Positions 4,475 through 16,578 of a stretch of DNA of 64,000 nucleotides are shown here, one piece after another. A program made the translations under genes and the position numbers. Under the pieces are notes generated by a model. The model had not been told where the DNA came from and made no database searches. It saw only the letters and a list, made by a program, of their open reading frames with translations. Each line of letters opens with the position of its first letter. Position 1 is the first letter of the stretch. The DNA is taken from assembly GCA_003139545.1 (NCBI GenBank), contig PLJC01000008.1, positions 22,874-86,873 of the forward strand, written 5' to 3'. The DNA is from Actinomycetota bacterium (GTDB lineage Bacteria; Actinomycetota; Thermoleophilia; Gaiellales; Gaiellaceae).

Positions 4475-4996
4475 ATGTTGGACGCGATCGGCGGCGGCCT
4501 TATCGGGATCGGAGCTCTCCTGCTCCTGAGCACGCTGTGGTGGCCGCCTCCGCCCCTGGAGCTGGTCGGCGACGCGGAGCACCGGCGCACCAAGCGCAAC
4601 AGCGCCGTCGCGACGATCGTCTCAGCTGCATCGACGTTCGCGGGCGCCGTTCTTCTTCTCCTTCGGAGCGGGTTCCTCTGGGCGCTCCTCGGGGTGGGGC
4701 TCGGGCTGCTCGTCTACTACGCGATGCTCGCATCATGGACGCACAGCGAATGGGCGTCCATCAACCGTCAAGTCACGCTGGAACGCAAAGGCGGAGATGG
4801 CCGAATCACGCTGGGAACTGCGAGCCGCATGGGGGCAACAAACGACCCCGCCGCTTCGACGTCAAGCATGGCGATATGGCTGACAAACGACGCCGAATAC
4901 GGTGAGCACGAGGCTCGGGTAGCCGCACGGAACGCTGGGTGGCGGTGGGCGCTCCGCCATCCGCGCGGCGGCGGTTGGGATCGCCGGAACCTGTAA
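4475..4996 (+). CDS. hypothetical membrane protein (3 predicted TM helices)
   Basis: 173 aa with hydrophobic helices GGLIGIGALLLLSTLWW, AVATIVSAASTFAGAVLLLL and FLWALLGVGLGLLVYYAML. No family recognised. Confidence 0.5.
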   Translation: MLDAIGGGLIGIGALLLLSTLWWPPPPLELVGDAEHRRTKRNSAVATIVSAASTFAGAVLLLLRSGFLWALLGVGLGLLVYYAMLASWTHSEWASINRQVTLERKGGDGRITLGTASRMGATNDPAASTSSMAIWLTNDAEYGEHEARVAARNAGWRWALRHPRGGGWDRRNL

Positions 4997-5076
4997 GCGC
5001 CTCAAAGTGTGCATGAGCCCGAGTTGCCGTCGCCCCCAGGCAACGATCCGTCCGCCGCGCGTGCGTTGATGGGCGC

Positions 5077-6258
5077 ATGGCGCGGATCGAGGCGATAGCC
5101 GAACCGAGCCTCCTCGTCTGGGCGCGGGAGCGAGCGGGCTACAGCATCGAGCAGGCTGCGAAGCGGGTGCCGGTGACCCCTGAGCGCCTTGCGGCGTGGG
5201 AGGCCGGTGAGGCCCGTCCCACTGTGAAGCAGCTCCGGAAGCTCGGTGGGATCTACGGGCGGCCGCTCGCGGTCTTCTATCTGCCGGAACCGCCGCGCGG
5301 CCCGCAGCAACCGGTCAGGGATCACCGTCGCATTTGGGGCGAGGAGCCTGAGGGAATCTCGCCGCGGCTCCGCAAGGAGATCGACATCGCCGAGGACCGG
5401 CGCGAACTCGCGCTCGAACTTCTTTCGCTCCAGGGGGAAGAGCCGCCAACGTTTGAGCTTCGAGCGAGCATCGGCGAGAACCCGAACACGGTCGCGGCTC
5501 GCTTCCGCGAGGCGCTCGGCGTCACCCTCGACGAGCAACTCTCCTGGCACGAGCGCTACAACGGCTTCAACGCGTGGCGAGACGCGATCGAAGGAGTCGG
5601 CGCCCTCGTCCTCCAGATGACCGACGTCCCCGTGCTGGAGGCGCGCGGCTTCTCCATCGCCGACAGACCGCTCCCGGCCGTGGTCGCGAACATCAAGGAC
5701 ACACCGCGCGCGCGGTGCTTCACGCTCATGCACGAGCTCGTGCATGTGGCGTTGCACGAGGGAGGTATCTGCACGCTCGACGATGCGGAGCGGGTGGAGG
5801 TGTTCTGCAACCGCATCGCCGGGGCGGTGCTCGTCCCCGCCGAAGCGCTCCGCTCCGATCAGATCGTTTCCGCGCACGGCACCGAGCCGGAGTGGGAAGA
5901 CCGCGAGATCGAAGCGCTCGCGCGTCATTTCAGCGTGAGCCGCGAGGTCGTTCTTCGCCGCTTGCTCATCATCGGTCGGACCGAGCAGGCGTTCTACCAG
6001 CGCAAGCGCGACGAGTACACGGAGCAGTACCGGGAAGCGACGGAACAGCGCAAGCGCGAAGAACAGAAGCCGCGGCCGATCCCCCGCGATCTGATCGCAG
6101 TCGCGCGCTCGGGACGGTTCCTGTCGCTGCTCGTGCTGAACAACTACGAGCAGGGCCGGATCACCGCGAGCGACGTCGCGGACTACCTCGGCATCCGCAT
6201 CAAGCACCTCGGCGCCATCGAGCGGCGCGTCTTCGGAGCGCAGCCGCAGACAGAGTGA
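5077..6258 (+). CDS. XRE-family HTH fused to an ImmA/IrrE (COG2856, M78-like) zinc metallopeptidase domain
   Basis: N-terminal HTH (YSIEQAAKRVPVTPERLAAWEAGEARPTVKQLRKLGGIYG) and an HEXXH site (FTLMHELVHVALHEGG). Confidence 0.85.
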   Translation: MARIEAIAEPSLLVWARERAGYSIEQAAKRVPVTPERLAAWEAGEARPTVKQLRKLGGIYGRPLAVFYLPEPPRGPQQPVRDHRRIWGEEPEGISPRLRKEIDIAEDRRELALELLSLQGEEPPTFELRASIGENPNTVAARFREALGVTLDEQLSWHERYNGFNAWRDAIEGVGALVLQMTDVPVLEARGFSIADRPLPAVVANIKDTPRARCFTLMHELVHVALHEGGICTLDDAERVEVFCNRIAGAVLVPAEALRSDQIVSAHGTEPEWEDREIEALARHFSVSREVVLRRLLIIGRTEQAFYQRKRDEYTEQYREATEQRKREEQKPRPIPRDLIAVARSGRFLSLLVLNNYEQGRITASDVADYLGIRIKHLGAIERRVFGAQPQTE

Positions 6259-6722
6259 ACTACAGCGTCGACACGAGCTCCCTCATCAACGGGTTCCGCA
6301 TCAACTACCCGTATCTGAACTTTCCGCGGCTCTGGAACGAGAACATTCCCTCCCTCGTGGCGTCGGGCGAACTGCGCGCGACCGAGGAGGTGCTCGTCGA
6401 GCTAAAGCAGCAAGACGATGAGCTGATCCAGTGGATTGAGGAGTACAGCGACGAGCTCTTCGTCGAGATCGACGACCCGATCCAGCGCGAGGTGATCGCC
6501 ATCCTGCGCGGCTTTCCGGCGCTCATCCACGCCGGGCGCGGCCGCTCCGGAGCTGACCCGTTCGTGATCGCGCTCGCAAAGCTCCACACGTGCGTGGTCG
6601 TCACCGAGGAGGGACGCGGGTCCGTCAAGCACCCGAAGATCCCGGACGTCTGCGACGCGCTCGGCGTGCCCTGCATCCGCCTCGTCGACATGATCGCTGA
6701 GCAAGGCTGGATCTACGGGTAG
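6255..6722 (+). CDS. DUF4411-like PIN-fold nuclease (putative toxin/effector)
   Basis: 155 aa from GTG 6255 (GTGA overlap with the upstream stop). YSVDTSSLING N-terminus and ADPFVIALA...VVTEE...IPDVC C-terminal pattern, as I recall for DUF4411. Confidence 0.7.
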   Translation: MNYSVDTSSLINGFRINYPYLNFPRLWNENIPSLVASGELRATEEVLVELKQQDDELIQWIEEYSDELFVEIDDPIQREVIAILRGFPALIHAGRGRSGADPFVIALAKLHTCVVVTEEGRGSVKHPKIPDVCDALGVPCIRLVDMIAEQGWIYG

Positions 6723-6804
6723 CCGCGTGGAATGCCTAGATGATCGCTGAACTGGTGGGGTGACTCACCATTTGCGCGAGCGTCCATTGACTCGACGCCC
6801 AATC

Positions 6805-6846
6805 TGGTAAGGAGGGGGTCGACGGTTCGAGTCCGTCAGAGGGCTT
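6805..6846 (+). repeat. tRNA-derived 42-nt direct repeat, copy C (att-core-like)
   Basis: Identical to 1590-1631. No 5' acceptor strand upstream, and no terminator downstream. Confidence 0.8.
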
Positions 6847-6908
6847 GCAACACCCCCTCACGGATTCTCGTTCAGGACACCTTGCTCTTCGTCGCACCTG
6901 CGATGGAT

Positions 6909-6927
6909 GTGGAGCTGTCTATGGAGC
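6909..6927. repeat. tandem GTGGAGC-N5-ATGGAGC motif pair, ~63 nt right of repeat C
   Basis: GTGGAGC at 6909-6915 and ATGGAGC at 6921-6927. The context CTATGGAGCTTTCGCGG resembles CTTATGGAGCTCTCGG at 1708-1723. Confidence 0.55.
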
Positions 6928-6963
6928 TTTCGCGGGCGCGAACGCGCGCCGACTCGCGCGGCG

Positions 6964-7455
6964 TTAGGACGCGCCCGACAGGTGGATGCCTCGCTTCGCC
7001 GCGTCCTGCGTCGCACGCTCTAGCAAACGAAGCGCACGCGCGAAGTCCTCGTGTCCGATCTCGAAGTGGGAGACGCCATGCCCGATCTGAGCTTGAAGAT
7101 CTGGACCGACCGAGGCCAGTGACGGCGCAAGGGACAGGCTTGGCACGCATGCGCCCTTGCGGAGCTCGACCGGTGCGGCGTACGGCCAAAGCCGAGCGAC
7201 CTCGGGGTTCGAGTGCCGGTCGTTGAGTACAGGCGGGTCCAAAGCACGCGACGCACCGAAGATGCACTTGGTGCCGCCGACCGCGTAGTAGATGAACTCG
7301 TCGCCGCGCGAAACATTCGTTGGCGCAGGCCGCGGAGGGAATCGTACTTCGATGTGCATCTCAGGATCCCGATCCCAAGGATCGTCGGCCATCGGCCACT
7401 TGCTTGATCCGAGGAGCTTGACGAAGTAGCTCAGCCCAACCCTCCCTTCAGTCAC
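6964..7455 (-). CDS. hypothetical protein
   Basis: 163 aa with ordinary, non-repetitive composition, unlike the GC-shadow ORFs. Co-directional with the ATPase gene and 330 nt downstream of it. No motif recognised. Confidence 0.6.
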   Translation of the reverse strand: MTEGRVGLSYFVKLLGSSKWPMADDPWDRDPEMHIEVRFPPRPAPTNVSRGDEFIYYAVGGTKCIFGASRALDPPVLNDRHSNPEVARLWPYAAPVELRKGACVPSLSLAPSLASVGPDLQAQIGHGVSHFEIGHEDFARALRLLERATQDAAKRGIHLSGAS

Positions 7456-7784
7456 CGCTGTCCTCGCGACCGTACAACAAGGCCGCGGTCGCGCCTAGGC
7501 GCTCATTGGTCACCACGACATGTCGCGCCCCTCGATCTCTCGTTCGAGCTCCTTCTGTTCTGCGCGGATCGCGACCAGCTTCTTCCGCTCCGGCGGATTT
7601 GCGCTCCGGAGCGCTCCACCACCTCAGATGTCGCGTCTGCGCTGCCTGCCTCTGTACAACATGGTGCGGCCGCTCCTGGGCTTCGCCGATGTCCTGCCGG
7701 CTCATTGTGGCAAGCGGTCTGAGAATCGAGGCAGGCGCTCGTGGGAACGAGCAGGCGCGACTATCACGCGAGTCTCCGCCGCGG

Positions 7785-10700
7785 TCAGGCAGCTGCAGCT
7801 TCGCGCAAGGTTGGTGCCGCATCAGGCAGATCCTGTGCGACGAGCCGATCACCGAGCGCCTTTCGGCCGACATCGATCAGGTGCTCGTGATGCGTCAGCA
7901 CGATAACCTGCGTCAGCTTCGCGAGCTCGCCGAGTGCTTCGAAGATGCGCTCCGACCGGGGCGGATCAGACTCGACGAACACATCATCGAAGATAACAGG
8001 GACATGTCCGGAGCTTTCGACGTAGCGCTCGATTGCGGCGATCCGTAGCGCGAGGAACAGCTGCTCACGCGTCCCCTTGCTCATCTGCGGGACGCGCTTC
8101 AAGACACGGTCACGCTGGCGGCCGATCAGCTCGCCGACGCCGCGTTCGGTCACGTCAACGAACAACTCGACGAAGCTGCCGAGCGTGAAGCGCGTGAACA
8201 GTTCGTTCGCGCGGCGCAGCAGTGGATCCTGGTGCTGCGCGCGGTAGCGGTCGATCGCCCGGCGCACAGTCGTGGCAGCGAGGTTCGCCCTCGCATGCGC
8301 AACCGCAGTTTCTTGCACAGCTGCTCGCGCAAGCGCGACGCCCTGTGCCGCCTCAACCGCAGAAACGTCGGTCTCGGCGTCCGCGAGCGCACGCCGGCGC
8401 TCACCGATCTGCTCCTTGATCTCGTCGCGCTCCGCACGCAGCTGCTCCGCCGTCGCGCCAAGGTCACGAAGGTCGAGGGCTGCGCGGTCGCGGTCGAATC
8501 CTTCCGCTGACGCAGCGAGCTCCGCGAATGGTCCCTCCCCTACTTCGGCGACGCGCTGTTCGGCTGCCTTGATCTCTTGGCGCAGAAGACGCACGCGCTC
8601 CGCACGCGCCTCGATCGTCGGAAGTTCGCGCGCGATGACGACGCCCGCGAACTCGACGAGCTCGGCGATCTCAGCTTCGGCGGTTGCGAGCTCGCCTGCG
8701 ATGACGGCGACCTCATCTGCTTTCGTCGCGCGCTGTTCCAGAAGGCCGTCGCGCCGAGCATTCGCACTGTCCTGCTCGGCCAGACGGCCGCCGAGCGCTG
8801 TGGCCGCGCGCAGCGTCGCCAGCGCCTGCAAGTCAGGAGCAAGCTCCTCACAAAGCGCCGTCACGGTTACATCGAAGGCGTCCGTGTCTGCGTCGATTCC
8901 CGCAATCCGCCGCTCGAGGTCAGCGACCGTGGCGAGCTGGTTGAGTCCCTCGTCGATCGCGCGTGCGATTTCGTGCGCTGTCTCGGGTGACGTCGTCCCC
9001 GGCAGCCCCGCCTCAGCCCGGCGCTTGGGCCACTCCTTCTCCCACGTGGCGAACGCGGCGCCCGCGGTGTCGAGTTCACGCTTCGCGCGAGTGACGGCAC
9101 GCTCGGCGCCGGCGAACGTGGTTTCAAGCGACGCTCGTGTTGTCGCTGCGGTTCGCGCGTCGTTGACGGCGGCCTGTGCACGCGCAATCAGCGCATCTAG
9201 TGGCGTCCCCGACACGACCTCAAGACCGAGGGCGCGCAATTCGGTGATGAGAAGCCCGACGACTCCGTGTTCGCGCTCTCGCAGCCGATCGGCGCGCTCC
9301 TCGGCTGCGTCCGCGTCGCGTGCGAGCTCGATGATCTCTTCGCGGTTGTCAAGCCACGAGTGAGCATCATCCGGCTGTATCGCATCCAGCTGCGTCACCG
9401 ACCACGTAGCAGCCCAGGCTGCGGCAGCAGCTGCTTCCCGACCACGGTGATCGTCTTGCCATCGCTCATGATCTGCGCGCTCGCGGGCGAGCTTCGTTGC
9501 GCTAGCGTGAAGCGCTGCGGTGCGCTCGATCTGCGCGGCGTGATCGGTGCGCCGATCAGCCAGATGATCGGCTTCGAGCACGATGCGCTCGAACGCGTCG
9601 CAGTCATCGTCGGCAAGCTCGCCCTCGGCACCCGAAGCACGGATGCGCGACCAGTGCTCATCCCGGTGAGAACGGGTACCCGCAAGGACTTCGGCGCTCG
9701 GGGCCTCGCCTTCGATCTGAAGGCGCAGGCGCTCCTCCTCGATCTCCGCCTCCCCGACCGCCAGGCGCTGCGACTCAGCTACGAGTGATTCCCTCTCGCG
9801 CTGCAATTCCTGCACCTGCAATGACGCACGAGTTGCATCTTCGCGCGATGGCGCTGTCATCGAGCGAAGTGCCGCGACAGATAGTGGCGGCGGAGCAAGC
9901 TCCCCAAGCTTCTCATCCGCTTCGCGGCGGCGGCGCCTTGCATCGAGATCGAGCTCATCGCGCTGCTCCGCGAGCGCGCTCGACTTCAGTGCGACGGCAA
10001 GCGCTGCCTCAAGCGGCGCAATGTCTGAGGCGCTCGGCGCTGCCGCAAGCGCCGTCTGCGCATCCTCGAGGTCTCGTACGGCCTGATCGTGCGTCGTCGT
10101 CGCGCTCCGCAGGGCCGCACGAAGCTCGTCCCGCGCGCGTAGACAGACATCGAGCGCATTCCGCTCGGCGATCGACCTACGGAGCGACTCGAGCTCGGAC
10201 AGGCCAACTCCGACAGTCGCCGCCGCATGCGACACAGCCGCTTGGGCCGCCTGCAACTCGCCTTCGCGCTTCCGACGGTCACCCGCAGCCTTGTTGATCG
10301 CGGCGCCGATGTCTGCGACAGCCCTGATTTCCTCGCCGCGTCCGAGGAGAGCGGAGTTGACAATGATCGAGTTGATCTCACCGTCGAGAGCGGCAAGTGC
10401 CTTCGTCGCGCGCGCGAGCGACTGTGTAGCGTTGCGGATGCGCCCTTGCACGTCGATCCGTCGCGCGGCAGCATCCTCGGGCAGGTCAGGCGTTCCCTCG
10501 AGCTTGGCGTATTCCTCAACGAGCTGAGCGCGCGCGGCAACCAGCGGTGCGATCGCCCGCTTGCGTTCGAGCTCGCGCATCTCAAGATCAAGCCCGCGCA
10601 GCCGCAACGTCGCCTCTTCGCAGGCACGCTCGGCCTCGCTAAGGGCTTTCGTCATCTCGTGGTAGCGCGCCGGCCGCAGCATCGAGTCGCGCAACCGCCG

Positions 10701-11282
10701 CTCTGCCTCGTGCAGATAGGCGAGCTGCTTGCGGAGGACGCTCGATCGCCCGCGCGGGTTGAAGAGCCGATCAGCGTCGGCCTGAAGCGCAGCGAGCGTC
10801 CGGTGAAGCGACGCGATCCCGGCAGCGGCCGCGAAGAGACTCGCGCCCACCTCGCCCTGGCCTTCCAGCAGCTCCCGGCCCCCGGCGACCAGCGTCTCGT
10901 TGTCGACCTGGAGCAGCCCGACGTACACGTCGGCCGACAGACCGCCGAGCGCCTTCGTAAGGACGTTCTCGGGAACGGGCTCACCGTTCGGGCCAAGCAG
11001 GGAATCGACGCGGCGCTTGCGCCTGCTGACCTCGATCGTTCGACCGTCGACGTTCAGCCGAGCGCCGATCCTAAGATCTGCGTAGTCGTACGTGTGGTTG
11101 TCCACGGGACGATCGCCCATGCCGTAAAGAAGACTGCGTTCACCGCGGCTTGTGGTCGACTTCCCGGAGGCATTGCGCCCGTGGATGAGATCGACGTCAC
11201 CGACACGGGGACTGAAGCGCAGCGAGTGATCCTCGAAACAGCCCCATGGGTTGAAGTCGAGGCGTTCGAACCGGAGCGCCAT
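7785..11282 (-). CDS. Rad50/SbcC-like ABC-type ATPase with a very long coiled coil (YhaN/SbcE-like)
   Basis: 1165 aa. Walker A GRNASGKST, then ~900 aa of A/E/R/L-rich coiled coil. C-terminal signature SKGTREQLFLALRIA, Walker B VIFDDVF and H-loop LTHH. ATGA overlap with the upstream nuclease gene. Confidence 0.85.
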   Translation of the reverse strand: MALRFERLDFNPWGCFEDHSLRFSPRVGDVDLIHGRNASGKSTTSRGERSLLYGMGDRPVDNHTYDYADLRIGARLNVDGRTIEVSRRKRRVDSLLGPNGEPVPENVLTKALGGLSADVYVGLLQVDNETLVAGGRELLEGQGEVGASLFAAAAGIASLHRTLAALQADADRLFNPRGRSSVLRKQLAYLHEAERRLRDSMLRPARYHEMTKALSEAERACEEATLRLRGLDLEMRELERKRAIAPLVAARAQLVEEYAKLEGTPDLPEDAAARRIDVQGRIRNATQSLARATKALAALDGEINSIIVNSALLGRGEEIRAVADIGAAINKAAGDRRKREGELQAAQAAVSHAAATVGVGLSELESLRRSIAERNALDVCLRARDELRAALRSATTTHDQAVRDLEDAQTALAAAPSASDIAPLEAALAVALKSSALAEQRDELDLDARRRRREADEKLGELAPPPLSVAALRSMTAPSREDATRASLQVQELQRERESLVAESQRLAVGEAEIEEERLRLQIEGEAPSAEVLAGTRSHRDEHWSRIRASGAEGELADDDCDAFERIVLEADHLADRRTDHAAQIERTAALHASATKLARERADHERWQDDHRGREAAAAAAWAATWSVTQLDAIQPDDAHSWLDNREEIIELARDADAAEERADRLREREHGVVGLLITELRALGLEVVSGTPLDALIARAQAAVNDARTAATTRASLETTFAGAERAVTRAKRELDTAGAAFATWEKEWPKRRAEAGLPGTTSPETAHEIARAIDEGLNQLATVADLERRIAGIDADTDAFDVTVTALCEELAPDLQALATLRAATALGGRLAEQDSANARRDGLLEQRATKADEVAVIAGELATAEAEIAELVEFAGVVIARELPTIEARAERVRLLRQEIKAAEQRVAEVGEGPFAELAASAEGFDRDRAALDLRDLGATAEQLRAERDEIKEQIGERRRALADAETDVSAVEAAQGVALARAAVQETAVAHARANLAATTVRRAIDRYRAQHQDPLLRRANELFTRFTLGSFVELFVDVTERGVGELIGRQRDRVLKRVPQMSKGTREQLFLALRIAAIERYVESSGHVPVIFDDVFVESDPPRSERIFEALGELAKLTQVIVLTHHEHLIDVGRKALGDRLVAQDLPDAAPTLREAAAA

Positions 11283-12523
11283 CAGCGATCAGTCCGTTCT
11301 AGAAGCGCGACCGGTAGCGAGCGCGAGACGTCTCCCATCAACTCACGCACTGTCTGTGGGTCGGACGGGTTGAACTCGGCGAGGACGGCCTGCGGCAGTA
11401 CGCGCGTCAACGGTTCGAGGGTTGCGGCGAGCTCGGCAGCGGAGCCGTCTCCATCCATCAGCTCTGCGAGCTCTTGCACGAGCTCACCGATCGCGTCGTC
11501 TCCGGCGGCGAGGTCACGAGGCGCCTGGGTCTCGAGCTTCACCTGCTCGATCCAGACCTGGCTGCTCGCGACGTCTGCAGCGGCACCGATCACCTCGTAG
11601 CGGAGACGCTCTTCATCGCCAGCAAGCTCGTTGTGTGCATCGCTCACACCTCCGATCACGACCCTCGCCGCGATCAGGCGCTCGCCGGCATCACGAACGG
11701 CGCCACGAACTGCCGCCGCGACATGCTCGATCGCCCGATCGCGATCCAAGCACTCGCTCGCGTCGATGTTCAGGACTGCCCAACGCACCGCATCCAACGC
11801 GACGTGCTCGAGAGTCGCGCGACCGTCGTCTCCGATCTCGACGATCACCGCGCCCTTCGGCCCCGCTTCGCGGACACCGCGACCCTGGAGGTTGCCGGGG
11901 AACACGATCAGCGGATCGAGGCTCAAGACCTCTTGGCTGTGAACGTGCCCAAGCCCCCAAAACGCGTAGCCGCGATCGCTGAGTCCTCGAAGAGTGCACG
12001 GCGCGTAGCGCTCGTGACCTGGGCGACCATCCACGCTCGTGTGCAGCAAGCCAACGTTGACGAGGTCCGTAATGGGCGCCGGATAGCCGACGGAGAGATC
12101 GTCGAGTACCGCCGGCGTTGCGTAGCCCTGGCCGTGAACGGCAAGGCCGATCTCCTCGTACGTCGCAGTATCGGGCTTGCGGGTGCCGAGGACGCGCACG
12201 TTGTCAGGAAAGCGCAGCGACCGGGTCAGCTTCGACTCCGCGTCATGGTTTCCAGCGACCATCACAACCGGGATCTCCGCTTCACGCAACCGCGCCATCT
12301 CCGAGACGAAGTGGACACCCGTGCCGTAGTGCTGCCAGTCCCCGTCAAAGATGTCGCCCGCCAGGAGAACGGCGTCAACGGCGCGCTCGATAGCTGAGTC
12401 CACAAGGTTCGAGAGTGCGACGCGCGTTGCCAGTCGAAGCTCGTCAGCCGGAGCGCCGTCGTACGCGACGAGACCTCTCATCGGGCTGTCGACGTGCAGA
12501 TCGGCTGACTGAAGGAGTCTCAT
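11282..12523 (-). CDS. Mre11/SbcD-like calcineurin-fold metallophosphoesterase nuclease (YhaO/SbcF-like)
   Basis: 413 aa with motifs DLHVDS, GDIFDG, GNHD, LLHTSV and GLGHVH in canonical order. Confidence 0.85.
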   Translation of the reverse strand: MRLLQSADLHVDSPMRGLVAYDGAPADELRLATRVALSNLVDSAIERAVDAVLLAGDIFDGDWQHYGTGVHFVSEMARLREAEIPVVMVAGNHDAESKLTRSLRFPDNVRVLGTRKPDTATYEEIGLAVHGQGYATPAVLDDLSVGYPAPITDLVNVGLLHTSVDGRPGHERYAPCTLRGLSDRGYAFWGLGHVHSQEVLSLDPLIVFPGNLQGRGVREAGPKGAVIVEIGDDGRATLEHVALDAVRWAVLNIDASECLDRDRAIEHVAAAVRGAVRDAGERLIAARVVIGGVSDAHNELAGDEERLRYEVIGAAADVASSQVWIEQVKLETQAPRDLAAGDDAIGELVQELAELMDGDGSAAELAATLEPLTRVLPQAVLAEFNPSDPQTVRELMGDVSRSLPVALLERTDR

Positions 12524-12765
12524 GGCGGGCGTCTAAGTAAATACGCCGGGTCGGACGGGCCACCGATGCACGCCACGAACGCCGGGGAGCGGCCCGAGGA
12601 ACGCAGTCTGTGCACGCCTTGCCCCACGGAAGCTGCAATTACGAGTTCGCGGTGTAAGTGCCGCAGTGAGTCCCACAACCCGCCGGCTATACGCGCGCGC
12701 CGGGTGAGGCAGGTCAACAGGTTCGATTCCGGTTCGCAAGAGCCACAGGGGGCGCCAGCGCGGTC

Positions 12766-13335
12766 CTAGGTCAGAAGCTCAAGTCCGCGCAGCAGCTCTA
12801 CAGATCGCGCGACTTGCTCCTCCGAGATGCGCCAACCAAGTTGATTGGCGAGTGCGGGGATCTCTGCGAGCTTCGTGGGCTGATCCTGCTGGCTAACGAT
12901 GAAATGAATCTTCGCCGCCATCGACAAGGTGTTTTGGTCGAAGTCCGGCACCGCCTTGTGGATCGCGTCGACCGTCACCTTGATCATGTCGGCCTGAGCT
13001 CCGTACGTCGCCCGAATCGCAGCTACCTCGCTAACTCCATCGCCCGTGAGCGCGTATGTGTACTTCCGAATGTCTGGGCCTGAGGCGTAGGAAGGAAACC
13101 TCTCCATCGTCTCAGTCACCTTTTCGCCGAGGGCAGTCTGCGCCAACGCATACTCGACGGGTCGACTGTACGGGCCGTAGTAATGCGCCCGATGCCCCAG
13201 ATCGTCGGCAAGGGCAACAGCGACGAAGTAAGCAATCTTCTGGATCGCTGTCCTGCCTTCAACCGTGCCGCCTGCAGCGTCGATCGCCAGCAGAACCGCA
13301 TCTCGCGGTGTCAGGCCTTCTTCAGTGCTTCCCAT
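12766..13335 (-). CDS. Panacea/DUF4065-like (SocA/GepA-type) antitoxin-like protein with a wHTH-like C-terminus
   Basis: 189 aa. GRTAIQKIAYFVAV...YYGPYSRPVEYAL resembles the KLQKLLYF...GP motif of DUF4065. Its start lies 25 nt inside the upstream HD gene. Confidence 0.6.
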   Translation of the reverse strand: MGSTEEGLTPRDAVLLAIDAAGGTVEGRTAIQKIAYFVAVALADDLGHRAHYYGPYSRPVEYALAQTALGEKVTETMERFPSYASGPDIRKYTYALTGDGVSEVAAIRATYGAQADMIKVTVDAIHKAVPDFDQNTLSMAAKIHFIVSQQDQPTKLAEIPALANQLGWRISEEQVARSVELLRGLELLT

Positions 13336-14732
13336 AGCAGCCCTTTCGCTCTCTCATGTGCTTCGTCTTGCGGATCGTCAGACAGAAACGGCGTGTAGAG
13401 ATGCGCGAAGCTGTGTTCCGCGCGACTCTCTTCGTCGAAGATCTCGCTCTCGCTCTCGAATGTGTCAGGTGGTCTGTCCCGGTACTCGAGCATGATGTCG
13501 CCGGAGTTGATCTTGGTTCCGGGGCCCCGATACGTCGGATTGGTCTGACTGTCGACGTAGAGCGCAACGAGATACGGCTCGCATCCCAGCGCCTCGGCTA
13601 TCTCAGCCTCAAGATCCGCAACCCGCGGCTCGAACTTGGTGCGATCAAGAATCTTGTCGTATTGCTGGGCACCGACCGTATGCCGTTCCCGGTGAAGTGG
13701 GATGCTTGCGGTACGTCGGAGAAGATCTCGGCAACGCAACCGATCAGCGAGTTTGAAGGAGATCCGGTCGGAGTTCTGGGAGAGGAGTCGTTCCGTTACT
13801 GACGCGTCTGTTTGAGGCAGGTACCACTCGATGAATTCCGGGGTCACCTTCGGCTTCCCGCCTTCTGCATCAACCGTGTAAGCCTCCGCCGGCACAGCGC
13901 CTTCTTCGATCCCGAATTTCAGCGCGCGCGTAACCATGATGTCGGTGGCGATTCGTGTCTTGTGTCCATAGACCTGGCGATGCATGTGATGACGCGCTAG
14001 CAACAGTGCCTCGACCGCCCAGACGCCATCCTCCTCGAATCCTAGAAACGACTCCGGCTGGTCTCGTCCGATAACCCTCGCGGTGTCGACAATCCGATCT
14101 AGGTCGTAGTGGCCATACTCGACACCTGCGTAACGACTGTCACGTAGGAGGTAGTCCAGCTTGTCTGCGTCCGTTGGACCGCTCACGATGTCCCCCAAGA
14201 AGGTTCGCGGCCCAACCTTCTCGATGAGGAGTGCTGCCTGATCACACGCCTCTTGACCGAGCGCCTCGACCAATCCCGAATCGTTGCGGATCAGGAATGC
14301 CGAGATCGCCTCGTGGCACCCCTTCACTCCGCTCCGATCATCGATGAGGCCCTCCGAAACGTGAGAGAAAGGTCCGTGGCCGATGTCATGGAGAAGCGCA
14401 GCGCCCCGTACCTGCCTGTACTCGGCCTCCGTCACTTCAAGAGTCTTCGCCAGGCGACCCGCGACGTGGCAGACGCCGATCGAGTGCTCAAAGCGGGTGT
14501 GAGTGGCTCCGGGATAGACAAGATCAGTCATCGCGAGCTGCCGGATCCCGCGCAGACGCTGGAAAACATCCGAGTTCACCGCAGCCCACTCAGCCGGCTC
14601 CAGAAAGATCATCCCGTGAATCGGGTCTCGAACGGTCTTGCTCGCCACAGGCTCTGGAGCTTCGCAGACCAGGTTGACGGAAGGAAGCGAAACTTCGATG
14701 AGAGTCTGCGTGGGCATAGGTGGACTGTTCAA
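13311..14732 (-). CDS. SAMHD1/EF1143-type HD-domain dNTP triphosphohydrolase-like protein
   Basis: VRDPIHGMIFL, FQRLRGIRQL, THTRFEHSIGV, LLHDIGHGPFSH and DADKLDYLLRDSRYAGV. The listed start is TTG 14732; ATG 14717 is an alternative. Confidence 0.85.
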   Translation of the reverse strand: MNSPPMPTQTLIEVSLPSVNLVCEAPEPVASKTVRDPIHGMIFLEPAEWAAVNSDVFQRLRGIRQLAMTDLVYPGATHTRFEHSIGVCHVAGRLAKTLEVTEAEYRQVRGAALLHDIGHGPFSHVSEGLIDDRSGVKGCHEAISAFLIRNDSGLVEALGQEACDQAALLIEKVGPRTFLGDIVSGPTDADKLDYLLRDSRYAGVEYGHYDLDRIVDTARVIGRDQPESFLGFEEDGVWAVEALLLARHHMHRQVYGHKTRIATDIMVTRALKFGIEEGAVPAEAYTVDAEGGKPKVTPEFIEWYLPQTDASVTERLLSQNSDRISFKLADRLRCRDLLRRTASIPLHRERHTVGAQQYDKILDRTKFEPRVADLEAEIAEALGCEPYLVALYVDSQTNPTYRGPGTKINSGDIMLEYRDRPPDTFESESEIFDEESRAEHSFAHLYTPFLSDDPQDEAHERAKGLLWEALKKA

Positions 14733-14959
14733 GACGAACGTATGTTCGCATCGGTATCGGACGGCACACTCGTCCTACCGCCTGGTGAGCTTCATCACAG
14801 CTTGCGCCGTCCGGCCCAGCTCGACACCCGGTCGAGCAGGCGTCCCAGCTCGCGCAAAGGTTGGCGCGATCCTGTCCGGCCACCCCAAGGGCGGCCCGGG
14901 GGTCGCCGACATGCTCTCCCCCTGGCAACCCGAACACCGAGCCAACGCGACTGATTCAG

Positions 14960-15026
14960 CGCGGATCCGGAGAGCTATCGGCGGCTCAAACACCGCTCCG
15001 TACCGCCCTCTGGAGCCGGATCCGCG
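14960..15026. repeat. long inverted repeat (11-bp perfect arms CGCGGATCCGG / CCGGATCCGCG, ~45-nt loop) in the divergent HD / methyltransferase intergenic region
   Basis: Arms at 14960-14970 and 15016-15026. Each arm contains GGATCC. There is additional AGAG/CTCT pairing inside the arms. Confidence 0.7.
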
Positions 15027-15090
15027 ATTTCCCGAAACTCGTCGAGCCCTTGAAATCCCTGCAAACACAGGAATAGGCTCACGGACCCCT

Positions 15091-16578
15091 ATGGCACCGA
15101 TCAGCTATCTGGAAACGGGCGTCATCTACTGCGATGAAAACCTGCGACGGCTGTCGCAGTTTCCTTCCGAGAGCATCGACCTGATCTACCTCGACCCTCC
15201 GTTCTTCACGAACCGGACATACGAGGTGATCTGGGGCGATGAGGCCGAAGTGCGGTCGTTCGAGGATCGCTGGGAGGGCGGCATTCAGGTCTACATCGAC
15301 TGGATGCGTGAGCGGATGATCGAGCTTCAGCGCATTCTCAAGCCGACCGGCTCCCTATATCTCCACTGCGATCCCACGGCGAGTCATTACCTCAAGGTAA
15401 TGACCGATGAGGTGTTCGGAAGCCGGGATCGCTTCGTGAACGAGATCATCTGGAAGCGCAGCAGTGCACATAGCGATACCAAGCAGGGCGCAAAGCACTA
15501 CGGCCGGCTGAGCGACACGATCCTCTTCTACGCCAAGAGCCCGAAACGCGCGTGGAATCAGCTGTACACACCCTACGAGCAGGAGTACGTCGACCGGGAC
15601 TACAGGCGAATCGAAGCTGGGACCGGGCGTCGTTACCGGATCGACAACATCCAGGGACCCGGTGGCGCGTCAAAGGGCAACCCCCACTACGAGTTCCTGG
15701 GCGTGTCGCGATATTGGCGCTATAGCCGCGAAAGGATGGAGCAGCTCTACGAGGAGGGCCGGATCATTCAGACGCGACCCGGCGCCGTCCCTCAATACAA
15801 GCGGTATCTCGACGAGATGCCTGGCGTGCCGCTTCAGAACCTTTGGATGGATGTCCCTGTGATCAACAACCGGTCGCGTGAGAAACTCGGCTACCCCACG
15901 CAGAAGCCCGAGGCACTACTTGAGAGGATCATCGCAACGAGTAGCAACCCCGGAGACATCATTCTCGATCCCTTCTGCGGCTGCGGTACGACGATTGCGG
16001 TCGCTGAGCGGCTACAGCGAAACTGGCTCGGCATCGACATCAGCCCGACTGCCGTCGGGCTGATGAAACGGCGGATGGAGAAGCTCGGCGCGTTCAATGT
16101 CCGCCTCGTCGGCATGCCTGTGACCGAAGAGCAGCTCAAGGCGCTCAAGCCCTTCGAATTCCAGAACTGGGTGATCCAAACGCTGCATGGAACCCACGCG
16201 CCGAGGAAGAGCGGCGATATGGGGATCGACGGCTATTCGTTCATGGAGCACGCACCGATCCAGGTCAAGCAATCTGAGCGTGTGGGCCGCAACGTCGTCG
16301 ACAACTTCGAGACGGCCGTACGACGTTCGGGCAAGGACGCGGGAATGATCGTCGCATTCAGTTTCGGCAGAGGCGCGCGGGAGGAAGTAGCTCGCGCAAG
16401 AAGTGAGGGACTGCGGCTCGAGCTTGTCACCGTGAAGCGACTGCTCGATGATCCTTCTGATCTCGTCACACCCGACGCGGCCCAACTGTGGCGGGACATG
16501 CTGCCGCCGCCTCGCGACAAAGCCGCTCGACCTTCGGCCGAAGAGCTCATTTCGAGCGATCTCGCCGTCGCCGTCTAG
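15091..16578 (+). CDS. beta-class N6-adenine/N4-cytosine DNA methyltransferase fused to a C-terminal Mrr-type (PD-(D/E)XK) nuclease domain
   Basis: 495 aa from ATG 15091. Motif IV DPPF precedes motif I ILDPFCGCGTT. The C-terminus carries SGDMGIDGY...IQVKQ, typical of the Mrr catalytic core. Confidence 0.8.
   Translation: MAPISYLETGVIYCDENLRRLSQFPSESIDLIYLDPPFFTNRTYEVIWGDEAEVRSFEDRWEGGIQVYIDWMRERMIELQRILKPTGSLYLHCDPTASHYLKVMTDEVFGSRDRFVNEIIWKRSSAHSDTKQGAKHYGRLSDTILFYAKSPKRAWNQLYTPYEQEYVDRDYRRIEAGTGRRYRIDNIQGPGGASKGNPHYEFLGVSRYWRYSRERMEQLYEEGRIIQTRPGAVPQYKRYLDEMPGVPLQNLWMDVPVINNRSREKLGYPTQKPEALLERIIATSSNPGDIILDPFCGCGTTIAVAERLQRNWLGIDISPTAVGLMKRRMEKLGAFNVRLVGMPVTEEQLKALKPFEFQNWVIQTLHGTHAPRKSGDMGIDGYSFMEHAPIQVKQSERVGRNVVDNFETAVRRSGKDAGMIVAFSFGRGAREEVARARSEGLRLELVTVKRLLDDPSDLVTPDAAQLWRDMLPPPRDKAARPSAEELISSDLAVAV

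Follow-up and report, generated by a model that had tools for sequence, protein, structure and literature searches.

To our knowledge, the nucleotide-depletion defences that have been characterized in bacteria so far, the dCTP deaminase and the Dgt-type dGTPase, are single proteins with poorly understood triggers. The Dgt-type enzymes, which defend by depleting dGTP, are encoded by single genes and do not allow direct alignment to SAMHD1 (Tal et al., bioRxiv 2021.04.26.441389). Among toxin-antitoxin systems, the C-terminal domain of DarG binds and inhibits the toxin DarT (PMC13621843; PMC8832971) and has been reported to be homologous to DUF4065, at a marginal E value of 1e-3 (PMC13621843). 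The survey of Panacea-containing antitoxins (PanA) lists, as cluster pT33/T34, predicted pairs of PanA with an "HD domain-containing protein, YdhJ" from five Firmicutes (Dataset S1, PMC8832971).

The window, i.e., the whole stretch of 64,000 nucleotides analysed here, carries a pair of overlapping genes whose products resemble SAMHD1 and the C-terminal domain of DarG, respectively. The pair and its surroundings are laid out as follows:

7785-11282, minus strand: AAA_27 SMC-like ATPase gene, co-directional with and downstream of the pair
11282-12523, minus strand: SbcD-like metallophosphatase gene, co-directional with and downstream of the pair
12766-13335, minus strand: gene for a stand-alone protein resembling the DarG C-terminal domain, 189 aa from ATG (ORF listing, profile and fold matches)
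13311-13335, minus strand: 25 nt shared by the two genes, from the HD stop codon (13311-13313) to the partner start (ATG at 13335)
13311-14732, minus strand: SAMHD1/EF1143-type HD phosphohydrolase gene, 473 aa from TTG at 14732 (ORF listing)
14733-15090, no strand assigned: intergenic region between the HD gene and a divergent methyltransferase-Mrr gene (gene layout), presumed to be the promoter region of the pair

The sequence of the larger protein identifies it as an HD phosphohydrolase of the SAMHD1/EF1143 type whose catalytic motifs are intact, as an earlier note on this DNA had proposed. It matches the Pfam domains HD (1.5e-9) and HD_assoc_2 (1.3e-11) and, in a phmmer search of the PDB, 2hek (2e-38), 2q14 (2.4e-36), EF1143 (2o6i, 5.4e-32), and SAMHD1 (~1e-28). 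Every motif quoted for it (VRDPIHG, RLRGIRQL, THTRFEHSIGV, LLHDIGHGPFSH, and DADKLDYLLRDSRYAGV) is present in the sequence, and the catalytic residues (H..H, HD..H..H, and D.D..DYL.RDS) show at least 95% conservation across 58 paired HD homologues. The enzyme probably degrades DNA building blocks (dNTPs). The 473-aa length given previously corresponds to an actual ORF with a TTG start, but the ATG at 14717, which is used in the public gene calls for the same contig and yields a protein of 468 aa, is the more probable start. Profile scores place this protein outside the Dgt-type defensive dGTPases: it obtained 17.5 bits against NF041026 (cut-off, 400) and 31.6 bits against TIGR01353 (cut-off, 152), and its match to the PADLOC dGTPase model is confined to residues 52-131 (~80 N-terminal residues). 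Stand-alone SAMHD1/EF1143-type enzymes are common and we know of no lethality caused by them; both points were counted against a defence reading of the pair.

The smaller protein contains the motif GRTAIQKIAYF...YYGPYS, on the strength of which it had been likened to the Panacea (DUF4065) antitoxins. Direct membership in that family was rejected: no match to PF13274 (SocA_Panacea) was found at E ≤ 0.1 for the window protein or at E ≤ 1 for any of its 22 close homologues, and just 2 of 74 members of the wider family matched at E ≤ 1 (best value, 0.19). No Pfam family was found for the 189-aa protein, and no Panacea structure was present among the matches in fold searches of BFVD and the PDB. 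Its sequence and predicted fold show it to be homologous to the C-terminal part of the DarG antitoxin, the domain that binds DarT, here standing alone, and "Panacea-like" is defensible at the superfamily level at most, by way of that domain. The window protein matches the PADLOC DarG model (6.6e-8, profile positions 159-321 of 329), as do, in the C-terminal half of the model, all 74 family members, and it matches the C-terminal part only of the NCBIfam model antitoxin_DarG (5.7e-6; 25.8 bits, the cut-off being 250). The family profile has a single credible match in the PDB, 7yk3_B (E value of 3.7e-6; the other three are at 0.035 to 1.4), and Foldseek aligned the AlphaFold2 (AF2) model of the protein (pLDDT of 91.5) with the same chain over the full length (TM score of 0.65, probability of 1.0). 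The invariant residues of the family are T29, Q32, K33, F37, H51-YYGPYS-57, A140, A141, K142, and W168. The winged-helix-like C-terminal segment noticed earlier is borne out by the AF2 model and by weak Pfam winged-helix matches in a few members. The PADLOC defence-candidate component PDC-M19A is matched by 46 of the 74 members, and a search of viral folds returned only two matches, both uncharacterized proteins of Sulfolobus viruses. Mimicry of single-stranded DNA in the manner of DarG was considered and rejected, given that the charge of the family is not consistently acidic (median net charge, -1.5); the lack of uniform acidity was also counted against the defence reading. Searches of the literature on YwgA, YwfO, COG1078, and PDC-M19 found essentially nothing relevant, and no HD toxin is among the entries of the NetFlax supplements.

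The 25-nt overlap of the two minus-strand genes, reported in the earlier note, was confirmed from the ORFs and the sequence. The upstream ATG of the partner gene, and therefore the overlap, is supported by the conservation of the N-terminus MGSTEEGLTPRDAVL in homologues; the identical overlap is found in five relatives (L001, L004, L087, L088, and L089), and its presence implies translational coupling. A motif-based scan of 185,579 GTDB species representatives yielded 214 loci with the small gene, and a profile search of 1.84 billion clusters yielded 2365 clusters of the small-protein family. In the 80 loci kept from these 214, an HD gene is adjacent and on the same strand in ~74, representing at least 15 phyla, which bears out the view of the two proteins as co-expressed partners. 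The clean pairs include 36 with the HD gene first and 18 with the small gene first, and in 52 of 52 the genes are separated by no more than 30 nt or overlap, the commonest value being -4 (15 times). The distance matrices of the HD and small-protein families are correlated (r = 0.91; Mantel p = 0.001). The two families thus co-diverge, and their synteny is near-obligate in both gene orders. Two statements made earlier about this arrangement had to be withdrawn: the combination is not unrecorded, since the Panacea paper already lists HD (YdhJ) with PanA, and the enzyme-first order is the one recorded for T34, which is arranged toxin-then-antitoxin, while the small-gene-first order is common in archaea. 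Within the pair, the small protein probably binds and regulates the HD enzyme.

Some genomes carry more than one pair: two Methanoperedens contigs (L019 and L054) belong to a single MAG, and the Desulfofundulus locus L011 holds two pairs, the second of them divergent. The two genes may also be fused, as in P0127, a 635-aa protein known from one sequence on one contig; such a form is a better fit to a stable regulatory subunit than to a labile antitoxin and was counted against the defence reading. A second candidate, the 651-aa ORF of L034, was rejected as a true fusion: P0122, a relative with 96% identity, is not fused, and its C-terminus differs in the way expected of a 1-nt frameshift, so that the L034 fusion is probably an assembly or indel artefact. 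In alignments built with MAFFT, the small proteins were placed onto the HD part of P0127 unless no more than five HD sequences were included. The AF2 model of P0127 obtained with such a shallow alignment (A6) had a pTM of 0.41 and carried no interface information, pLDDT values being below 50 over much of the HD part (254 of the 635 residues, most of them between 1 and 310); this co-fold proxy was likewise counted against the defence reading.

In contrast to the pair itself, its surroundings are variable, differing even between relatives at 45-73% identity, with integrases, toxin-antitoxin clusters, and restriction- or DISARM-like genes as frequent members. Integrases and runs of small genes without Pfam matches surround the pair in L089 and L090, a HEPN/MNT, HicB, and MazE cluster in L091, GmrSD and Eco57I in L088, a transposase and RHS in L001, and BilD-like and RHS genes in L092; in L033, L052, and L061, the pair is inserted within DISARM-like clusters of DUF499, SNF2, and DUF1156 genes. 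A rough survey that covered 32 loci, with four neighbours at each, revealed no dominant defence signal. Housekeeping genes were among these neighbours, such as those for ribonucleotide reductase, gyrase, and a tRNA synthetase, and this outcome was counted against the defence reading. In the window, one flank is formed by the AAA_27/SMC-like gene and the SbcD-like metallophosphatase gene and the other by an N6_N4 methyltransferase fused to Mrr_cat; domain matches and gene calls agree here with the earlier description of an SbcCD-like pair and a methyltransferase-nuclease fusion. The suggestion of an accessory block is likewise backed by the gene layout and by the low GC content (0.59-0.62 over 13-17 kb versus ~0.70 elsewhere in the window), and this low-GC block also holds the methyltransferase-Mrr fusion and a DUF4411/M78 pair. 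A sigma-70 consensus scan of positions 14733-15090 produced no match, a result that is uninformative for a high-GC lineage, and promoter, terminator, and RNA scans at the locus found nothing.

The reading of these observations that we favour, with about an even chance, is a toxin-antitoxin-like defence module in which the dNTPase is bound and gated by its partner. Here the first gene would encode an active SAMHD1/EF1143-type HD dNTP triphosphohydrolase and the second, translationally coupled to it, a DarG-tail-like protein that would bind the enzyme and hold it off or gate it. This control could then be lost when a phage infects, when host expression is shut off, or when the partner disappears, and the freed enzyme would hydrolyse dNTPs, causing DNA replication to stall; the outcome would be a toxin-antitoxin-like, abortive or bacteriostatic defence by nucleotide depletion. 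In this scheme, the physical binding, the inhibition, the dNTP substrates, the toxicity, and the phage trigger are inferred. There are precedents: the DarG C-terminal domain, a homologue of the partner, binds and inhibits DarT; HD (YdhJ)-PanA pairs have been predicted to be toxin-antitoxin systems (PMC8832971); and Dgt-type dGTPases already defend by depleting dGTP. A more specific version, in which the DarG-tail-like protein is a trigger-sensing inhibitor gating a true SAMHD1 homologue and the pair provides two-component nucleotide-depletion immunity in many phyla, is tentative and on balance doubtful.

The alternative that survives best, unlikely in our estimate yet the most serious of the rivals, is that the pair is a widespread operon of the YwfO-YwgA type with a housekeeping role in the control of dNTP pools and no part in genetic conflict. 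The small protein would then act constitutively as a regulatory or targeting subunit, e.g., an allosteric modulator or a winged-helix DNA tether, and the dNTPase would trim dNTP pools in the cell cycle or in stationary phase. Most small-protein homologues are labelled "uncharacterized protein YwgA" by JGI; this label points to the neighbouring genes ywfO and ywgA of B. subtilis and would fit a pair that belongs to the core genome in Bacilli. In addition, ywfO co-evolves with polC in Firmicutes (PMC3814617), and Dgt-type dNTPases have cell-cycle roles (PMC12186491); the YwgA label and the ywfO-polC co-evolution were both counted against the defence reading. Ribonucleotide reductase or DnaE-like genes adjoin some of the loci, fused forms exist, and tblastn searches of plasmid and phage collections found no copy, an absence that fits housekeeping and was also counted against defence. 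However, a housekeeping operon would hardly be expected to show so sparse and patchy a distribution as that seen in both the scan of species representatives and the cluster search, to occur in two copies in some genomes, or to lie in surroundings that are unconserved among close relatives and often contain mobile, toxin-antitoxin, or restriction-type genes. The location of the window pair in a low-GC accessory block and the fact that the sole characterized homologue of its partner is a toxin-neutralizing domain also speak for the gated defence module over housekeeping.

A role of the small protein solely as a winged-helix autoregulator of the PadR/MarR kind, making no contact with the enzyme, is improbable. 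Winged-helix-like units are seen in its AF2 model, the weaker Foldseek matches include PadR, VanR, and RTP, and a few family members have weak Pfam matches to PadR, HARE-HTH, or HTH_12 or are called PadR or MarR regulators by JGI. These winged-helix matches, however, are partial, with E values above 0.04, whereas the match to the DarG C-terminal domain spans the full length; the invariant residues are atypical of a DNA-recognition helix, and the tight co-divergence with the HD family and the existence of fusions indicate protein-protein contact. Many type II antitoxins both regulate transcription and bind their toxins, so that the two roles are compatible.

It is very improbable that the pair belongs to a larger system of four genes akin to Lamassu or SbcCD, in which the HD protein would be the effector and the small protein an adaptor resembling LmuC or a kleisin: the HD, small, SbcD-like, and SMC-like genes do follow one another on the minus strand, the AAA_27 protein weakly matches the PADLOC models mad3 (1.6e-10) and LmuB (1.1e-6), 16 of 74 relatives of the small protein weakly match LmuC models (best, 3.4e-5), and L087 has an SbcCD pair ~4 kb downstream of its HD/small pair, but the window small protein has no PADLOC match to LmuC at E ≤ 0.1, a 242-nt gap with a tRNA-3'-end-like fragment parts the two gene pairs, the HD/small pair occurs by itself in dozens of unrelated settings, and tblastn found homologues of the window AAA_27 and SbcD-like genes at no other pair locus, so that the link is largely refuted.

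If the gated defence module exists, it would, with a dedicated protein restraining a SAMHD1 homologue, be a tractable system for studying such restraint and its infection-triggered release. The "YwgA" family, which has no Pfam model in spite of its 2365 clusters, would gain a function, and the DarG/Panacea toxin-binding fold would be extended to a new enzyme class, archaea included. In the more specific version with a trigger-sensing inhibitor, the module would come closer to SAMHD1 restriction than any other prokaryotic system, in archaea as well as bacteria, and the DarG C-terminal/YwgA/Panacea fold would be a general "enzyme-clamp" adaptor, used with DarT, with HD dNTPases, with the partners of PDC-M19, and perhaps in complexes of the Lamassu type. 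Should the pair be a housekeeping one, it would still reveal a new protein regulator of dNTP pools.

Among the known systems, the HD protein is closest to the SAMHD1/EF1143/Aq_1910-type dNTPases (COG1078), with which it aligns directly (E values of 1e-28 to 2e-38) and shares the HD and HD_assoc_2 domain pair and the metal-binding and catalytic residues. It lacks the SAM domain of SAMHD1, and its gene comes with that of an obligate small partner, whereas we know of no comparable protein regulator for SAMHD1 or EF1143. The defensive dGTPases resemble it in being HD-superfamily triphosphohydrolases, in the starvation of phage replication by nucleotide depletion (for the window pair, a proposal), and in their genomic placement, as both can sit within or beside restriction-type operons. 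The small protein shares the motif xQKxxYF...YGPYS with the C-terminal domain of DarG (PDB 7YK3 chain B, Mycobacterium tuberculosis) but lacks its N-terminal macrodomain, an ADP-ribosyl glycohydrolase, and is paired with an HD phosphohydrolase rather than with the ADP-ribosyltransferase DarT. The co-directional bicistronic layout with a short gap or overlap across taxa is that of PanAT and other type II toxin-antitoxin pairs, whereas the PanAT antitoxins are Panacea (DUF4065) proteins and the window family has no match to PF13274. The greatest likeness in organization is to T34, where a COG1078-type HD enzyme is followed by an antitoxin-like protein of ~180 aa with a junction of -17 to +23 nt. 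Its genera include Desulfofundulus, the source of the locus with a divergent second pair; T34, compared here through its Dataset S1 listing, comprises five Firmicute entries, and the family described here is far broader, with its 2365 clusters spanning bacteria and archaea.

The two minus-strand ORFs described in the earlier note lie where it placed them, overlap by 25 nt, and encode proteins containing all the motifs that it quoted.

The gene pair in the window
13311-14732, minus strand: ORF of the HD enzyme, 473 aa from a TTG start
ATG at 14717, minus strand: start of the HD gene in the public gene call on the same contig, 468 aa
12766-13335, minus strand: ORF of the small partner, 189 aa

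The HD stop codon (13311-13313) sits 25 nt inside the partner ORF, and the N terminus of the partner is conserved among its homologs, so the upstream ATG, and hence the overlap, is real. The sequence is matched by a 407-kb metagenome contig (JGI 3300037340) and likewise in ENA and Logan assemblies. The closest relatives of the window contig are Solirubrobacterales/Thermoleophilia-like. Over positions 13-17 kb of the window the GC content is 0.59-0.62, down from about 0.70.

The large protein contains the Pfam domains HD (1.5e-9) and HD_assoc_2 (1.3e-11) and, in phmmer searches of the PDB, aligns directly with proteins from Aquifex (2HEK, 2e-38) and Bacteroides (2Q14, 2.4e-36), as well as with Enterococcus faecalis EF1143 (2O6I, 5.4e-32) and about 25 SAMHD1 entries (about 1e-28). 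Its metal-binding and catalytic residues (H78/R80/H83, H115-D116, H119, H124, and D188/D190/D193-Y-L-x-R-D-S) are at least 95% conserved in 58 partnered HD homologs. The SAMHD1/EF1143-type identity proposed earlier is thus borne out, and the protein is very probably an active enzyme of this class (COG1078, "YdhJ" in CDD). A Dgt-type defensive dGTPase identity was rejected: the protein scores 17.5 bits on NF041026, whose cutoff is 400, and only its residues 52-131 match PADLOC dGTPase. According to Tal et al. (bioRxiv 2021.04.26.441389), a direct alignment to SAMHD1 was not possible for their defensive dGTPases.

The small protein had been called Panacea-like. As a family assignment, this does not hold: the Pfam Panacea model matches neither the window protein (E<=0.1) nor any of 22 homologs (E<=1), and it matches 2 of the 74 family members in alignment A2 (best E, 0.19). 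At the superfamily level the guess was reasonable, since a 2026 paper found DUF4065 proteins to be marginally homologous to the DarG C-terminal domain (PMC13621843). The small protein corresponds to the C-terminal half of DarG, matching the PADLOC DarG model (6.6e-8, profile positions 159-321 of 329), as do all 74 family members (best, 5.7e-12), and NCBIfam antitoxin_DarG (5.7e-6, positions 188-312 of 338). The sole credible PDB match of the family profile (3.7e-6) is to the C-terminal domain of DarG as crystallized with DarT (7YK3 chain B); the other three matches listed have E values of 0.035-1.4. The whole length of the AF2 model (pLDDT 91.5, pTM 0.87) aligns in structure with 7YK3_B (TM 0.65, probability 1.0), and the signature xQKxxYF...(H/R)YYGPYS is common to both proteins. 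The DarG domain is the sole characterized relative of the small protein. There is no Pfam model for this family, most members of which bear the JGI label "uncharacterized protein YwgA," which points to the probable gene neighbors ywfO and ywgA of Bacillus subtilis. Of 1.84 billion representative clusters searched exhaustively with HMMER, 2365 reached E<=1e-3 and 324 of these reached E<=1e-30. Members of A2 also match PDC-M19A (46 of 74), a component of an uncharacterized candidate phage defense system in PADLOC (no literature on PDC-M19 was found), the LmuC component of Lamassu (weakly, 16 of 74; 4-16 members for each of four models), and the unannotated phage family phrog_14939 (38 of 74). 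The PDC-M19A and LmuC matches hint that the DarG C-terminal domain/YwgA fold is an adaptor reused in several conflict systems.

In a motif scan that took one genome from each GTDB species, 214 loci carrying the small gene were confirmed, and 80 of them were kept. An HD homolog is directly adjacent and codirectional in about 74 of these 80 (tblastn), so that the co-occurrence suggested for checking in the earlier note is found elsewhere and the pairing is real. Six loci lack the HD gene; in four (L014, L032, L037, and L043) the small gene lies near a contig end, which leaves L055 and L081 as the only two with complete flanks. In L081, a Schlafen AlbA_2 plus HATPase_c_4 protein (6672-7895) is encoded downstream of the small gene (5962-6552) in the same direction, which may represent a partner swap like those of Panacea antitoxins. 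Clean pairs number 54, of which 52 come from the GTDB scan and the other two are L001 and L002. The HD gene comes first in 36, the order of the window and most bacteria, and second in 18, mostly from archaea (Methanoperedens, Methanomicrobiales, Methanosarcinaceae, Nitrososphaerales, and Bathyarchaeia). All 52 scan pairs are joined by an overlap or a gap of <=30 nt, -4 (ATGA) being the commonest junction. Pairwise distances in the two families are correlated (r=0.91, Mantel p=0.001), and the hosts belong to at least 15 phyla. No third gene conserved family-wide was found beside the pair. A sister subclade, whose small proteins share 44-48% identity with that of the window, has two additional conserved genes beside the pair, one on each side. 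Neither matches Pfam, and both are absent from the window; outer flanks vary among these loci, which may carry a four-gene version of the module.

Extra genes of the sister subclade (locus-internal coordinates)
Upstream, same strand, about 110 aa: L001 6322-6657; L088 6321-6644; L089 (same as L004) 6282-6614; L093 6212-6586
Downstream, convergent, about 440-458 aa, 33-60% identical from locus to locus, degraded in L001: L088 8551-9867; L089 (same as L004) 8589-9929; L093 8542-9912

Obligate, translationally coupled synteny, codivergence, an intact dNTPase active site, and likeness to DarG, whose C-terminal domain binds and silences its partner enzyme DarT, make an inhibitory or gating complex the most economical model, all of whose elements, from binding and inhibition to substrate, toxicity, and trigger, are inferred. 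In this model, the small protein would form a complex with the HD enzyme and inhibit or gate it; once released, the enzyme would hydrolyze dNTPs and DNA replication would stop, a toxin-antitoxin-like, Abi-type defense. Three lines of structural or genetic evidence for HD-small contact yielded little. Of two natural fusions, the 651-aa ORF of L034 is probably a frameshift artifact and the 635-aa P0127 is a single sequence; AF2 modeling of P0127, run without a usable deep alignment, gave no interface information. Charge analysis of the small proteins did not support conserved DNA mimicry.

The genomic context leans toward an accessory, mobile, or conflict-related module, although the evidence is not uniform. 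The low-GC block of the window holds an XRE regulator and the genes listed below, which are given together with a tRNA-like fragment.

Surroundings of the pair in the window
5077-6258, plus strand: HTH_3 + Peptidase_M78 (ImmA/IrrE-like) gene
About 6255-6722, plus strand: DUF4411 (PIN-like) gene
7785-12523, minus strand: AAA_27 SMC/SbcC-like ATPase (1165 aa) and adjoining SbcD/Mre11-like metallophosphatase (413 aa)
12720-12745, plus strand: GGTTCGATTCCGGTTCGCAAGAGCCA, resembling a tRNA T-arm, acceptor strand, and CCA end, lying in the 242 nt that separate the small gene from the SbcD-like gene
15091-16578, plus strand: N6_N4 DNA methyltransferase fused to a C-terminal Mrr_cat nuclease domain (495 aa), divergent from the HD gene

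The first two genes, with Pfam assignments taken from public gene calls, make up a pair of toxin-antitoxin or Abi type that also belongs to this accessory stretch. The ATPase has weak PADLOC matches (mad3, 1.6e-10; LmuB, 1.1e-6) and, with the metallophosphatase, may be a defense-type Rad50/Mre11 paralog rather than housekeeping SbcCD; the methyltransferase fusion may be a single-chain restriction-modification enzyme. ARAGORN and Rfam called no tRNA at 12720-12745, and the window has no second copy of this fragment, which may be an att-site remnant at the junction of separately acquired modules.

Surroundings of the pair in other loci
L001: transposase, PLD, and RHS genes
L088: GmrSD, Eco57I/TaqI_C
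L089, L090: phage-type integrases, runs of small genes without Pfam match
L091 (Methanofollis ethanolicus): dense HEPN/MNT, HicB, MazE/ParE cluster
L092: BilD-like, XRE, and RHS genes
L033, L052/L059: DISARM/RM-like genes, the pair having a DUF499 or SNF2 gene on one side and a DUF1156 methyltransferase on the other
L061: DISARM/RM-like genes, the pair adjoining a helicase with an MZB domain

L052 (Methanoperedens MAG) and L059 (MAG labeled Ignavibacteria) are 90% identical in DNA over 8 kb (DUF499, DUF7680, small gene, HD gene, and DUF1156 methyltransferase), reflecting either recent interdomain transfer of a defense island or misbinning. Two copies of the pair occur in one Methanoperedens MAG and also in Desulfofundulus.

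Against the accessory reading, a crude survey of four neighbors at each of 32 loci found ribonucleotide reductase, gyrase, tRNA synthetase, and biosynthetic genes and no dominant defense family, the L093 pair adjoins NrdJ, and tblastn of plasmid and phage collections detected no copy. The main alternative casts the small protein as a regulatory subunit, with a housekeeping role, of an enzyme acting on dNTP pools; it appears unlikely but deserves consideration. Fold matches of the small-protein model other than DarG are partial winged-helix ones (E>0.04), and it is improbable that the protein is purely a transcription factor. Membership of the pair in a larger SMC-type system is very hard to credit, as the AAA_27/SbcD-like genes are unlinked to it in other genomes and lie beside it in no other locus.

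The earlier note knew of no such pairing, but it is already recorded in Dataset S1 of PMC8832971 as the predicted toxin cluster pT33/T34 ("HD domain-containing protein," CDD YdhJ), whose entries, each with the mark "notest," come from Ammonifex, Desulfofundulus, and three genomes of Caldicellulosiruptor. In Desulfofundulus australicus (L011), two HD-small pairs flank murJ (4606-5995, 6001-6582, 9895-11285, and 11276-11830); the first, with an HD gene split by a frameshift, belongs to the family studied here, and the highly divergent small protein of the second is matched to the family profile by hhalign (probability 97.8%, E 1.3e-12). The T34 PanA proteins therefore probably belong to the same family as the window small protein or to a sister family. 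No experimental work on the partnership of either protein was found in the literature. The observation made in the earlier note is thus confirmed and its interpretation partly supported; new here are the structural link to DarG, the near-obligate synteny, and the wide spread of the family, which comprises 2365 clusters and occurs in bacteria and archaea and in both gene orders.

The window locus is probably a divergent member of the computationally catalogued HD-PanA class (T34), for which a SAMHD1-type dNTPase paired with a stand-alone protein like the DarG C-terminal domain is the better description. T34 has the toxin-then-antitoxin order with a DUF4065 PanA and junctions of -17 to +23 nt (PMC8832971), and the window is likewise HD-then-small. 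The dGTPase genes found inside type I restriction-modification operons (Tal et al., bioRxiv 2021.04.26.441389) have a setting similar to that of the pairs beside DISARM/RM-like genes, and the inhibitory or gating complex proposed here would provide a defense analogous to those of SAMHD1 and the bacterial dGTPase/dCTP-deaminase systems.
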